Virus record (IMG/VR): IMGVR_UViG_3300021197_001703
Length of the DNA: 64,000 bases
Reading direction: 5' to 3' (one strand)
Origin: an uncultured virus (IMG/VR IMGVR_UViG_3300021197_001703)
Taxonomy: Duplodnaviria > Heunggongvirae > Uroviricota > Caudoviricetes
The position numbers and the translations under genes were made by a program. Positions 2 through 20,129 of this stretch are shown piece after piece (position 1 is the stretch's first letter; each line of letters begins with the position of its first letter). The notes beneath the pieces were generated by a model. The model was not told the DNA's origin, did no database searches, and saw nothing but the letters and a program-made list of their open reading frames with translations.

Positions 2-832
2 TATTGTAGTTATGTTGACCAGAGTTATGCTGACTTTGATATTATACTGCCAAGTATAGACAAAATTAATGTTCGCACGATTGCTGAAGCAAAACGTAAC
101 AAAGCCAAAAAATTAGGAACCGCAGAGTACGAAGCACGTAAACTTGCTGGTGAAAAAGTAAAACAAGCAGAGTGTGCCATTGATTATAGAAAAATGGAAA
201 AGAATGAATTAATTTTTAGAATTATGTCATTCGATCATATTCCAGAAGAAAAAGGACGTAAAAAGAATCCAAAGACTGTAGCAGATACAAGAGTTAAGTT
301 AAACTTTCCACCATTCCAACATTTTAAGTTTGATGAAGAAACACAAGAGTTATTGTGTGTTGGTAAAAGTCATTGGGAAGGTGGTATGGAAAACGGTGCG
401 TTTAGTTTGAAGCATGGTAAGACTACTGAAAAACTTGCTCGTATGTGGATGAAACTTTGTGATCGTTATGCAACAAGAGGTAATGTACGTGGATACACAT
501 ACAATGACGAGATGCGTGGACAAGCAATTTTACAATTAACACAAATAGGATTACAGTTTGACGAATCTAAGTCTGCTAATCCATTTGCATATTATACTGC
601 GGCAGTAACTAATTCATTTGTTAGAGTTATTAATATTGAAAAACGTAATCAAAACATTAGAGATGACATTTTAGAAATGAACGACATGACTCCATCATTT
701 ACAAGACAGCAACAAGGTGAATGGGAAAGACAAGTCGAAGACCAAAGAAAAGCAATGGCGAAGCAAGAAGCAGAAAAAGGTATTAAGAAACCATTTGTTC
801 CGCCTACTATTAAAGCCAAGGTGCCGAGATAG
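2..832 (+). CDS. gp55: T4-like late-transcription sigma factor (5'-truncated; the frame is open back to the window start)
   Basis: Motifs YTYNDEMRGQAIL, FDESKSANPFAYYT and NSFVRVINIEK match gp55. There is no stop from nt 2 to the ATG at 194, and the gene is adjacent to gp47/gp46 as in T4-like phages. Confidence 0.88.
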   Translation, partial: YCSYVDQSYADFDIILPSIDKINVRTIAEAKRNKAKKLGTAEYEARKLAGEKVKQAECAIDYRKMEKNELIFRIMSFDHIPEEKGRKKNPKTVADTRVKLNFPPFQHFKFDEETQELLCVGKSHWEGGMENGAFSLKHGKTTEKLARMWMKLCDRYATRGNVRGYTYNDEMRGQAILQLTQIGLQFDESKSANPFAYYTAAVTNSFVRVINIEKRNQNIRDDILEMNDMTPSFTRQQQGEWERQVEDQRKAMAKQEAEKGIKKPFVPPTIKAKVPR

Positions 833-17609: not shown

Positions 17610-18773
17610 ATGTCAGAACTATTAGAAAGTAGATGGCAGGAAACTAAGAGCGCATTACTTGAAGGCCTACAAGGCAATAAGAAGTCTGTTATGTCTGCTA
17701 CGCTTGACAACACCAAGAAGTACTTGGCTGAGTCGGCTACAGCAGGAGCAACTTCTGCAGGTAATGTTGCAACTTTAAATAGAGTTATCCTACCAGTAAT
17801 AAGAAGGGTCATGCCTACAGTGATCGCTAACGAAATCGTTGGTGTTCAACCTATGACAGGACCAGTGGGTCAAATCCACACATTAAGAGTTCGTTACTCA
17901 GACACATTAGATGATGTGACTGCAGGCGAAGAGGCTCTATCACCGTTCAAGATTGGCTTAGGCTATTCAGGTGGTGGATCTACTGATAAGGCATCTGCTA
18001 CAGCGGCACTTGAAGGTGAAGCAGGTAAGAGATTGTCAATTCAGATCTTAAAACAAACAGTCGAAGCGAAGACACGTAAATTGTCAGCACGTTGGACTTT
18101 TGAGTCTGCACAAGACGCACAAGCACAACAAGGCATTGACGTAGAAGCGGAAATTATGGCGGCTTTAGCACAAGAAATTACTGCTGAAATCGATCAAGAA
18201 GTTCTTGCTTCATTACGTAACTTGGCTGGCGCGGCAGAAGCGGACGTACAATACGACCAAACTGCTGTTTCAGGTACTGCAACATTCGTCGGTGACGAAC
18301 ACGCGGCACTTGCTGTTATGATTAACAGAGCGGCTAATAAAATCGCACAGCGTACAAGACGTGGCGCAGGTAACTTTGCAGTGGTATCACCGCATACGTT
18401 AACTGTACTTCAGTCTGCTACAACTTCAGCGTTTGCAAGAACAACTGAAGGTACATTCGAAGCACCTACTAACACTAAACTTGTTGGTACACTAAACGGC
18501 GCAATGAAAGTATACGTAGACGCATATGCAACAGACGCAACAGACGTACTTGTTGGTTACAAAGGAACATCAGAAGCAGACGCGGCGGCATTCTATTGCC
18601 CATACATTCCGCTAATGTCTTCAGGCGTTGTTTTAGACCCAGGTACATTTGAGCCTGTAGTTTCATTCATGACAAGATATGGCTATGTAGAGTTAAACAA
18701 CACTGCATCATCTCTTGGTAATGCGGCAGACTACTTGGCACGTGTATCAGTTGCGGGTGTAACATTTAGTTAA
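17610..18773 (+). CDS. gp23: Major capsid protein
   Basis: IRRVMP, VGVQPMTGPVGQI, TRKLSARWTFE, EITAEIDQE, FYCPYIPL and FMTRYG motifs; possible maturation site LAE/S. Confidence 0.97.
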   Translation: MSELLESRWQETKSALLEGLQGNKKSVMSATLDNTKKYLAESATAGATSAGNVATLNRVILPVIRRVMPTVIANEIVGVQPMTGPVGQIHTLRVRYSDTLDDVTAGEEALSPFKIGLGYSGGGSTDKASATAALEGEAGKRLSIQILKQTVEAKTRKLSARWTFESAQDAQAQQGIDVEAEIMAALAQEITAEIDQEVLASLRNLAGAAEADVQYDQTAVSGTATFVGDEHAALAVMINRAANKIAQRTRRGAGNFAVVSPHTLTVLQSATTSAFARTTEGTFEAPTNTKLVGTLNGAMKVYVDAYATDATDVLVGYKGTSEADAAAFYCPYIPLMSSGVVLDPGTFEPVVSFMTRYGYVELNNTASSLGNAADYLARVSVAGVTFS

Positions 18774-18794: not shown

Positions 18795-18825
18795 AAAAGG
18801 GCGGTGGCAACACTGCCCTTTTTTT
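18795..18825 (+). terminator. Rho-independent terminator after the major capsid gene
   Basis: AAAAGGGCGGTG-GCAA-CACTGCCC followed by a T-tract. Confidence 0.9.
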
Positions 18826-18863
18826 ATGGCTATTCAAAATATATATTTTGGTAAACCTACCTC

Positions 18864-18892
18864 TTGCATTTTCCTACAAAGAGTGTTATATT
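18864..18892 (+). promoter_or_regulatory. sigma70-type promoter driving the candidate ncRNA
   Basis: TTGCAT (18864-18869), 17-nt spacer, TATATT (18887-18892) with an extended -10 TG. Confidence 0.7.
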
Positions 18893-18898
18893 AATAAC

Positions 18899-19142
18899 AT
18901 AGCAACAAAAAACTAATTACTTTTTGTTTATAGTGCAAGGAAGAGGCCTTTACCAGAAGGGTCGAACTTGACTGTCCAGGGGTGGTACCCAGGCTTGGTA
19001 GTAGAAATACGCTGAGTCACATCGCACTAACCCGCGGGGACAGGTTGTACGGTTTAGGAATGGTATTCCGGTCCGTGCTTGTAGGTGTACCCAAGTCCTA
19101 CCTATTATGCTTATATTAAAAGGCTCTTCGGAGTCTTTTTTT
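18899..19142 (+). ncRNA. Candidate stand-alone structured sRNA of about 240 nt (family not recognised)
   Basis: GC-rich island bounded by a promoter and a terminator, with helices 18931-18936/19024-19029, 18945-18963, 18969-18973/19015-19019, 19001-19010 (GAAA), 19047-19078 and 19081-19101; no sense ORF. Confidence 0.7.
19118..19142 (+). terminator. Rho-independent terminator
   Basis: AGGCTC-TTCG-GAGTCT followed by a T-tract. Confidence 0.88.
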
Positions 19143-19158
19143 ATGACTAAATATTTGT

Positions 19159-19578
19159 ATGAAGGACGAGTACACAACGGTCTTTTATGACCTTGTCCAA
19201 GAGACACAGTCCACTACAGGTTACGAACTTCCCTTAGAAGTTGAAGCGTATGTAGTAATGCTCCTTGCAGATAAGTTAGACAAACCAAATTTTCTTCCTC
19301 AAAAATCATTTGCAGAAGCATACTTGTCATTAAAACAACCTTATAGATTATCAGCAAAAGAACTGGGCGACACATGTCTTTTTGTTACAGGTGTATTTCC
19401 TGAATACGGATTGAGTGTTGATTACTATTCTAATATAGGTAAAAGCAGTTATAGTATTGCTACAACAAATTTTGATATTGAAATATTTGAACTATTATCG
19501 ACAAAATTTGATTTTGTACGTGAATTCATTAATATAGCAACAAAGCCAAAATATTCTCCAGTTTTGTCTATTAGATAA
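19159..19578 (+). CDS. Hypothetical protein resembling an uncharacterised bacterial family
   Basis: 139 aa; EAYVVMLL, KELGDTCLFVTGVFP and YYSNIGKSSY motifs; TAAATA at 19148-19153. Confidence 0.7.
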   Translation: MKDEYTTVFYDLVQETQSTTGYELPLEVEAYVVMLLADKLDKPNFLPQKSFAEAYLSLKQPYRLSAKELGDTCLFVTGVFPEYGLSVDYYSNIGKSSYSIATTNFDIEIFELLSTKFDFVREFINIATKPKYSPVLSIR

Positions 19579-19679
19579 ATACTTGTGTCAAATAGTGTGC
19601 CGCAAGGCGGACTTATGCTGTTTAACCCACAGCGTACTGGATAGAACCCAGATAGGACTACTTATATAGGAGAAAACAA
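19575..19679 (+). promoter_or_regulatory. Late promoter plus structured 5' leader
   Basis: ATAAATA at 19575-19581, hairpins at 19599-19608 (GCAA loop), 19614-19636 and 19637-19651, then an AGGAGA RBS. Confidence 0.55.
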
Positions 19680-20129
19680 ATGGGAAGACCAATAAATAAA
19701 AAGTTTTTCGGAGTACCTACAGCAGGTGGCAACGAAATCAAAGTAGACTTTCATAACGGCACAGCAGTTAAAGAAGGTTATATTGTTAAGCAATTAGGAT
19801 CTAAAAAGTTTCGTGTAGCGGCTATCGGTACACCAAATGATAAATTTGATCGTTTCTTAACAACAGGAAAATTAGCAACTGCACTTACTGGTACAGAAAT
19901 GGCTATTACTGTTAAAGGTGATGACGCAGAAACTTATCAAGTTTCTAAAATCTCTGGACGTAAAGCAACAATCATTTCACCAGATGGTACAGGCGCAAAC
20001 GCATTAACAGGAACATCAATTGCATGGAACTTTAGCACATCTAACACAGATAAAGCAGTACAGTTTGAAGAAGCAGGTGACGACGATACATTAGTTGGAA
20101 CTGATGATGATGACTTTGCTAACGCATAA
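19680..20129 (+). CDS. Probable virion structural protein (possible head decoration)
   Basis: 149 aa, monocistronic between a late promoter and a terminator, close to the capsid gene. Confidence 0.6.
   Translation: MGRPINKKFFGVPTAGGNEIKVDFHNGTAVKEGYIVKQLGSKKFRVAAIGTPNDKFDRFLTTGKLATALTGTEMAITVKGDDAETYQVSKISGRKATIISPDGTGANALTGTSIAWNFSTSNTDKAVQFEEAGDDDTLVGTDDDDFANA

Follow-up and report, generated by a model that had tools for sequence, protein, structure and literature searches.

In a marine T4-like myophage, a structured RNA follows the major capsid gene; what is this RNA, and does it serve the next gene or act on its own? The question was raised by the uncultured virus IMGVR_UViG_3300021197_001703, of which a stretch of 64,000 nt was analyzed (referred to as the window; coordinates are those of the window, and the RNA is on its + strand). 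An earlier note, made from the letters alone, had described an RNA of unknown kind, flanked by a sigma70-type promoter and a TTCG terminator, and had suggested an early phage small RNA or ribozyme, possibly a decoy for a host protein. We found that the RNA is almost certainly homologous to manA (Rfam family RF01745), and the sequence of the locus and its relatives makes it likely that the RNA forms an independent transcription unit. The spot that it occupies behind the major capsid gene is variable.

Run in E-value mode, Rfam aligned positions 18906 to 19111 (+) to positions 1 to 192 of the 192-position manA model, without truncation. The E-value was 2.6e-12 for a 601-nt search and 2.8e-10 for the whole 64 kb. 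Over these 192 positions, the window RNA has the same helices and conserved stretches as the manA motif (AGUG, the GGUGGU loop, the ACC loops, and the CCU...3' strand). Because the score of 51.5 bits is below the curated gathering cut-off of 55.2, standard Rfam annotation misses this RNA. Indeed, a gathering-threshold scan of the window did not return manA and reported only freshwater-2. The earlier note had held that a match to a known family would refute its proposal, and the proposed unknown kind of RNA therefore gives way to manA.

Among 50,697 phage records, the sole similar stretch was found in Pelagibacter phage Mosig EXVC030M (MT647606.1, 108169-108391). This copy lies in an unannotated gap, is 75.2% identical to the window RNA over 220 nt, has a fold identical in kind, and scores 64.0 bits against the manA model, above the cut-off. 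Further relatives were collected with a pattern of two stretches common to the window and Mosig, which yielded at least 120 loci in viral contigs, 105 of them with full flanks; all counts of relatives given here are among the matches listed. Their identity to the window RNA ranged from 58 to 99%, with a median of 73%. The full manA model was matched by 20/20 short relatives, and 10 of these 20 reached the cut-off. The stretches TAGTGCAAGGAAGA and GGTGGTAC were invariant in 69/69 sequences, partly by construction since the search pattern demanded them, and they also fall on uppercase consensus positions of the manA model. By its sequence, the window RNA is part of a known family, in which it represents a divergent and abundant branch with scores on either side of the Rfam threshold; about half of the branch falls below the cut-off.

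The strongly structured RNA predicted earlier proved to be real. On the + strand, positions 18895 to 19145 fold at -75.1 kcal/mol (z = -2.07), a value equaled by 5 of 200 shuffles. The fold of the - strand over the same positions was not unusual (z = -0.02; 94/200 shuffles were as good). Covariation was evaluated for 69 distinct sequences aligned using MAFFT, with no fitting to structure; the helix numbers were chosen to fit a 2026 preprint (see below) and are taken from its text alone. The manA helices and two loop-loop candidates were paired to 90.7%, compared to 37 to 47% in slid controls. Changes on both sides were present in 37 of 66 pairs, the number of compensatory cells was 610 as opposed to 189 in shuffles, and 0/500 shuffles attained the observed values of pairing and compensation. 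Helices P1 to P9 covary. Covariation among homologs, the lack of which would have told against a conserved fold, is thus present.

Not all of the base pairing proposed in the earlier note was retained. CTGTCC and GGACAG form a genuine helix, P4, in which 6/6 pairs covary and which is 99.3% paired; however, it is nested and makes no pseudoknot. The second pseudoknot, CTTGG with CCAAG, was paired to 69.6%, compared to 70.2% in shuffles, and its CTTGG strand is within the P6 stem. A closing helix TAGTGC/GCACTA had 0 compensatory cells and clashes with the covarying helices P2 and P7. The RNA had also been called GC-rich. This holds in comparison with the downstream flanks (48% GC at 18900-19099 compared to 27 to 39%) but not in comparison with the upstream capsid gene, which likewise has 44 to 50%.

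Outside the Rfam model, the window subfamily adds an outer helix, P0, in which the putative transcript start (commonly AUAAGCAA) pairs with the tail in front of the terminator (UUGCUUAU). A perfect run of at least 6 nt was found in 63/78 distinct relatives, compared to 10.8% of shuffled tails. In alignment A2, P0 was paired to 83.2% (33 to 49% in slid controls) and exhibited 27 compensatory cells, compared to 7.2 +/- 2.4 in shuffles. Minor subtypes carry other P0 sequences, such as a 12-bp version in locus L055.

The promoter TTGCAT-17-TATATT named in the earlier note is present, and its layout is shared by the relatives. The arrangement TTGNNN-16..18-TANNNT occurred in 63/63 distinct upstream regions, compared to 173 of 5646 background windows (3.1%). 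In these 63 regions, the -35 position reads TTGAC followed by A, T, or C in 48, the -10 element is TATATT in 49, and a TGn extension precedes it in 44. The spacers between the conserved hexamers comprise 53 distinct sequences. The -10 element ends 13 to 15 nt before P1 in 52/63, and transcription in the window would start near position 18899, about 7 nt after the -10 element.

The TTCG terminator is present as well. Its core hairpin, GGCTC-TTCG-GAGTC (19122-19135), is extended by A/T arms (19118-19139) and followed by 7 T residues (19136-19142). A GC-rich hairpin with a T run was located 9 to 16 nt after the fold in 55/85 distinct loci, with widely differing stem sequences. The remaining 30 had no match in the strict scan; in three of them (L043, L089, and L117), a terminator can be seen by eye. 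Duplexes between the terminator 5' arm and the RNA were no better than those of shuffled arms (mean z = -0.36; 5/59 below -2), and no antiterminator is therefore seen. On average, the arm-RNA duplex reached -7.8 kcal/mol, compared to -12.8 kcal/mol for the terminator hairpin itself.

Same-strand ORF139, the open reading frame (ORF) of 139 amino acids (aa) that follows, begins 47 nt after the end of the manA model, with the terminator and the sequence TAAATA in between. We take TAAATA to represent the core of a late promoter of the T4 type, TATAAATA. It was present up to 70 nt downstream of the terminator in 42/55 loci, compared to 65/2073 background windows (3.1%). The capsid gene in front of the RNA has a terminator of its own, which keeps transcription of the capsid gene apart from the RNA unit; the RNA lies directly behind this terminator, as stated previously. 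The RNA is conserved jointly with its promoter and terminator, and the next gene has its own late-type core, in agreement with the earlier description of a self-contained, early-type unit within a late structural region. Given the promoter, the paired ends, the terminator, and the separate late-promoter core for the next gene, the fold appears to work on its own.

With regard to the late-promoter-like core, (C/A)TAAATA stands 3 to 5 nt before an ATG after the terminator in the window (19143-19161) and in loci L009, L015, L025, L053, L057, L058, and L060; the spacing is exemplified by TATAAATAATTGTATG in L009. If TAAATA is a late promoter, this suggests that late mRNAs at these sites are leaderless or nearly so.

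We favor, with moderate confidence, a free-standing, early, trans-acting manA RNA with paired ends, which may form a self-assembled particle. Transcription by unmodified host sigma70 RNA polymerase would begin near 18899 early in infection and end at 19142, so that the primary transcript would measure about 244 nt. Pairing of the transcript ends in P0 would then result in a stable particle of about 215 nt. The RNA would act in trans rather than via control of the ORF at 19159-19578, and its conserved exposed loops (L3 UACCA, L5 GUGGUA, L7 UAACC, L8 UGGUA, and L6 GAAA) would clip RNA copies together.

The self-assembly part of this proposal builds on a preprint, in which manA RNAs are reported to form closed homo-oligomers in vitro, as visualized by cryo-electron microscopy (Ren et al. 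2026, bioRxiv 10.64898/2026.07.01.735769). Decamers, an octamer, and an icosahedral-like cage of 60 subunits are described, each of them assembled from pentamers. For one construct, the preprint gives kissing loops L5-L7' and L8-L9' as the pentamer contacts. For the decamer former manA_pho34_A767, it lists L6-P6' (a GNRA-receptor contact), L5-L7', and L3-L8'. The window RNA belongs to the same Rfam family as these RNAs and carries a GNRA loop on a long hairpin (L6, GAAA). With the helix numbering taken from the preprint text, its L5/L7 and L3/L8 complementarities correspond to contacts listed for manA_pho34_A767. Watson-Crick complementarity of at least 4 nt was found between L3 and L5 in 69/69 sequences and between L3 and L8 in 59/69, compared to 10 to 18% for shuffled loops. 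For L5 and L7, it was found in 37/69 sequences if no register was imposed, compared to 13% for shuffled loops; by fixed alignment columns, just 58.5% were paired. A contact of L5 with L7 in the window subfamily appears weakly supported.

Self-assembly of manA RNA in vivo would seem possible, if somewhat short of probable. A more specific version is tentative and, in our view, rather doubtful. It proposes that, in this subfamily, manA does not form gene leaders but early trans-acting RNAs that work in the infected cell as a closed, RNA-only oligomer (a pentamer-based decamer or cage) joined via loops of the UACCA/UGGUA type. Such an oligomer might serve as a scaffold, a sequestering particle, or a decoy.

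Other manA copies have a different layout. The Mosig copy does not lie behind a capsid gene and has no terminator after it; the start codon of a rubrerythrin (PF02915) follows about 21 nt behind the RNA. From its sequence surroundings, this copy is evidently of the leader type. A second, loose pattern scan returned at least 119 loci, from which a stricter motif selected 31 as cyanophage-type copies; the other 88 were left out as likely chance matches. An nhmmer profile of the window subfamily gave 0 matches at E <= 1e-3 against the 119 loci. Like the window RNA, RF01745 RNAs are found in marine T4-like phages, and a sigma70-type promoter is located directly upstream of cyanophage-type copies too (20/30 by a strict pattern). 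The L3 and L8 sequences of the latter differ from UACCA and UGGUA in the window. The terminator differs as well: the window subfamily is mostly terminated (55/85), whereas cyanophage-type copies rarely are (2/28).

The following points weigh against a free-standing RNA. Downstream of most cyanophage-type copies, the sequence continues into ORFs or tRNA genes. Of the 30 loci in the window subfamily that lack a nearby terminator, 7 show an ATG at a distance of 21 to 35 nt from the RNA (rubrerythrin, peroxiredoxin). In 4 others, gp32 comes next and is separated from the RNA by TATAAATA. In view of the unterminated loci with a close ATG and of the cyanophage-type layout, the manA family includes true leader-type copies. 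In the window, the ATG of ORF139 is only 16 nt past the T run, and read-through could therefore feed this gene. The -35 element of the window is poor (3/6), and a generic consensus scan reported neither the promoter nor the terminator of the RNA. The partners of the loops are ambiguous, as L3 fits L5 as well as L8. Rfam and published papers label manA as cis-regulatory (Weinberg et al. 2010, PMC2864571; S-CREM1 paper). The preprint also keeps manA as a putative element of the 5' untranslated region (UTR) and offers in vitro data only; the reported assembly was obtained in vitro at high RNA concentration (bioRxiv 10.64898/2026.07.01.735769).

RNA libraries give a weak hint of expression. Parts of the stretch are matched by 14 RNA-library runs, and four runs from four studies were mapped, all as contigs. 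Contigs reveal neither ends, strand, nor level, gaps in their cover prove nothing, and RNA libraries may contain DNA. Contigs from three of the four studies (X1, X5, and X8) lie on the RNA. A 204-nt contig of X5 matches 18922-19121 with 10 differences; contig cover of X5 is absent at 18817-18910 and beyond 19146, that of X8 is absent beyond 19052, and X11 contigs have almost none on the RNA. The X1 contigs cover all 30 bins. They continue upstream through the promoter of a relative (with a loose end at 18901), and X1 may therefore hold DNA or read-through, which again counts against the unit proposed here. The start and end of the transcript given here are predictions from sequence.

One rival is a classical cis riboswitch, in which the manA fold would bind a metabolite and the hairpin at 19118-19142 would be the expression platform for the ORF at 19159-19578. 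The original description rates manA as a riboswitch candidate in 5' UTRs (Weinberg et al. 2010, Genome Biol 11:R31, PMC2864571). Promoter, aptamer-like fold, terminator, and same-strand ORF are the usual riboswitch layout, and the short distance from the T run to the ORF start, the close ATG in 7/30 unterminated relatives, and the ORFs entered by most cyanophage-type copies fit as well. However, the terminator neither overlaps nor complements the fold but begins 9 to 16 nt after P2/P0, and its stem varies freely while the fold is conserved. The unremarkable pairing of its 5' arm (mean z of -0.36) and the late-promoter core that follows it in 42/55 loci also speak against an expression platform. 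The downstream ORFs of 66 loci represent 23 different families, and 14/66 are on the opposite strand. A ligand for manA was not found in the literature search. Control of the next gene by a riboswitch is therefore considered unlikely.

Another alternative follows the functional idea of the earlier note: the RNA might act in trans on a host RNA-binding or defense protein, as a decoy or sponge, or it might be a self-cleaving ribozyme. A stand-alone, early-type unit suits a trans-acting RNA, and a multimeric particle could, by inference only, display many binding sites. The flanking genes vary, though, and no partner protein accompanies the RNA. No ribozyme family was matched in Rfam scans of the window, and cleavage goes unmentioned in the accessible parts of the manA literature that was found. 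The premise of an unknown kind of RNA was refuted by the manA match, and we regard this alternative as quite improbable. The accompanying statement that the RNA is neither a tRNA nor a tmRNA agrees with ARAGORN, which reported 0 such genes over the window.

Processive antitermination of the put type acts through an RNA on the transcribing polymerase. By analogy, the nascent manA fold might let the early polymerase pass terminators and bring about early expression downstream. Immediately upstream of the RNA, there is always a strong sigma70-type promoter; downstream, a terminator and then same-strand genes are usually present. Such a role would fit terminated and leader-type copies alike. There is no direct evidence for it, however; the downstream gene is convergent in L080, L081, and L024, and known put RNAs are far smaller than the manA fold. 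As it also gives no role to the invariant complementary loops or to the reported self-assembly, we rate it as very unlikely.

The region had been called ORF-free, which is inaccurate insofar as ORFs of 45 aa (18982-19119, +) and 85 aa (18950-19207, -) on the mechanical list overlap it; a small protein encoded by either is nevertheless hardly conceivable, given single-base indels among homologs at several places inside both ORFs, pairwise compensatory substitutions (37/66 pairs), a - strand without fold signal, and a promoter and terminator that face the + strand.

These considerations bear on a family that was described in 2010 and has been an orphan among riboswitch candidates ever since (Weinberg et al. 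2010, PMC2864571). Although the family is known, the terminated, stand-alone gene layout was not found in a literature search that was thin on subscription journals, nor did this search return a description of manA in pelagiphage-like contigs. Together with its relatives, which number more than 100, the locus represents a large branch in marine phages with its own conserved promoter, paired ends, and a terminator without antiterminator potential, and it provides natural compact manA constructs (about 18899-19114 in the window). If RNAs of this subfamily do work as closed oligomers in the infected cell, the stand-alone copies that follow the capsid gene would represent, in its natural form, the only RNA for which construction of an icosahedral shell has been reported to date. 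The features of the locus are compiled in Table 1.

Table 1. Predicted features of the manA RNA locus and its surroundings, in window coordinates unless a contig is named
Feature	Coordinates	Strand	Remarks
-35 element TTGCAT	18864-18869	+	3/6 match to TTGACA, weak
Extended -10 element TGtTATATT	18884-18892	+	TG 18884-18885, TATATT 18887-18892; 17-nt spacer
P0, 5' strand	18899-18904	+	AUAGCA; begins at the putative transcription start
manA RNA core	18906-19111	+	RF01745 model positions 1-192
P1	18906-18911 / 18921-18926	+	manA model
P2	18929-18933 / 19102-19106	+	manA model
P3	18945-18950 / 18958-18963	+	manA model
L3	18951-18955	+	UACCA; 61/69 sequences
P4	18972-18977 / 19038-19043	+	CTGTCC/GGACAG, nested
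P5	18979-18981 / 18988-18990	+	manA model
L5	18982-18987	+	GUGGUA; 69/69 sequences
P6	18992-19003 / 19008-19018	+	Long stem with GAAA loop
L6	19004-19007	+	GAAA in 48/69, GAGA in 9/69
P7	19022-19025 / 19034-19037	+	manA model
L7	19026-19033	+	ACUAACCC; holds UAACC/ACC complementary to L5
P8	19047-19052 / 19073-19078 and 19057-19060 / 19066-19069	+	manA model
L8	19061-19065	+	UGGUA in 49/69; GG invariant
P9	19081-19085 / 19097-19101	+	manA model
P0, 3' strand	19108-19114	+	UGCUUAU; one-base bulge in the window copy
Intrinsic terminator of the RNA	19118-19142	+	AAAAGGCTC-TTCG-GAGTCTTTT and T run; dedicated hairpin scan only
Major head protein gene	17610-18773	+	phrog_138, E = 4.9e-101
Intrinsic terminator of the capsid gene	18803-18826	+	Stem 18803-18817, then CTTTTTTTAT; generic consensus scan
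TAAATA, late-promoter-like core	19148-19153	+	Context; 5 nt before the ORF139 ATG
ORF139 (139 aa)	19159-19578	+	Context; outside the RNA
Freshwater-2 RNA (RF02980)	19596-19682		70.2 bits, cut-off 49.9; Rfam gathering-threshold scan
149-aa ORF (MGRPINK...)	19680-20129		Freshwater-2 RNA extends into its ribosome-binding site and ATG
Glutamine-riboswitch matches (RF01739) in relatives	L095 82-129; L102 65-112		Also in L098, L083, L084, and L103; about 150-200 nt before manA

In the relatives, the gene upstream of the RNA was a capsid gene in 42/84 loci, an S-adenosylmethionine (AdoMet) decarboxylase gene in 13/84, and a Mosig-type 285-aa gene in 12/84. The downstream ORFs include the 139-aa family of the window in 10 loci. 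From these counts of neighbor families, the RNA appears to stay behind the capsid gene while the following gene changes. Opposite-strand ORFs downstream are real genes in L080, L081, and L024; they include a class-II tRNA-synthetase-like gene, a carbamoyltransferase gene, and a 769-aa ORF. The AdoMet decarboxylase (PF02675; for example, L040 1813-2184 and L067 2030-2428) is further cargo in the same variable spot. Neither ORF139 nor the 149-aa ORF matched Pfam, PHROG, or NCBIfam, and ORF139 is unrelated to the rubrerythrin of Mosig (E = 5.3).

Jumbo T4-like phages have the nearest relatives of the window capsid protein: that of Vibrio phage 2.275.O (349 kb) is at 71.6%, and those of Serratia BF, GAP32, and CBB are at 68%. 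The RNA seems mobile between phage lineages, since the window capsid is not closest to that of Mosig, yet Mosig is the sole isolate with a similar RNA.

Other structured RNAs accompany manA. Glutamine-riboswitch matches precede it in 6/20 short loci, and freshwater-2 follows it in 5/20. By these matches, the spot behind the capsid gene apparently forms an island where as many as three structured RNAs occur, namely, glutamine riboswitch, manA, and freshwater-2. In the window, a late-promoter-like GATAAATAC at 19574-19582 overlaps the stop codon of ORF139 and is followed by the freshwater-2 RNA. Several relatives have the same promoter, freshwater-2, and a member of the 149-aa-ORF family directly after the manA terminator. 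This family is the largest downstream cluster, with 21 of the 66 loci listed (150 to 220 aa). From its position, freshwater-2 looks like the late-mRNA leader of a phage protein.

Some minor observations concern the flanks of cyanophage-type copies. In L131, L141, L150, L153, L170, L198, and L239, a GC-rich hairpin contains the -35 element TTGACA of the manA promoter in its loop and runs out into a stretch of T residues, as in GGAGGG-TTGACA-CCCTCC-TTTTTTT; in these loci, the manA promoter thus overlaps with the terminator of the preceding gene. A recurring GACCTAAGATGCAAC...GGGCAGATGGTC with a T run is found after manA in L153, L157, L161, L170, L198, and L218, and a tRNA-like sequence follows directly in L137 and L240.

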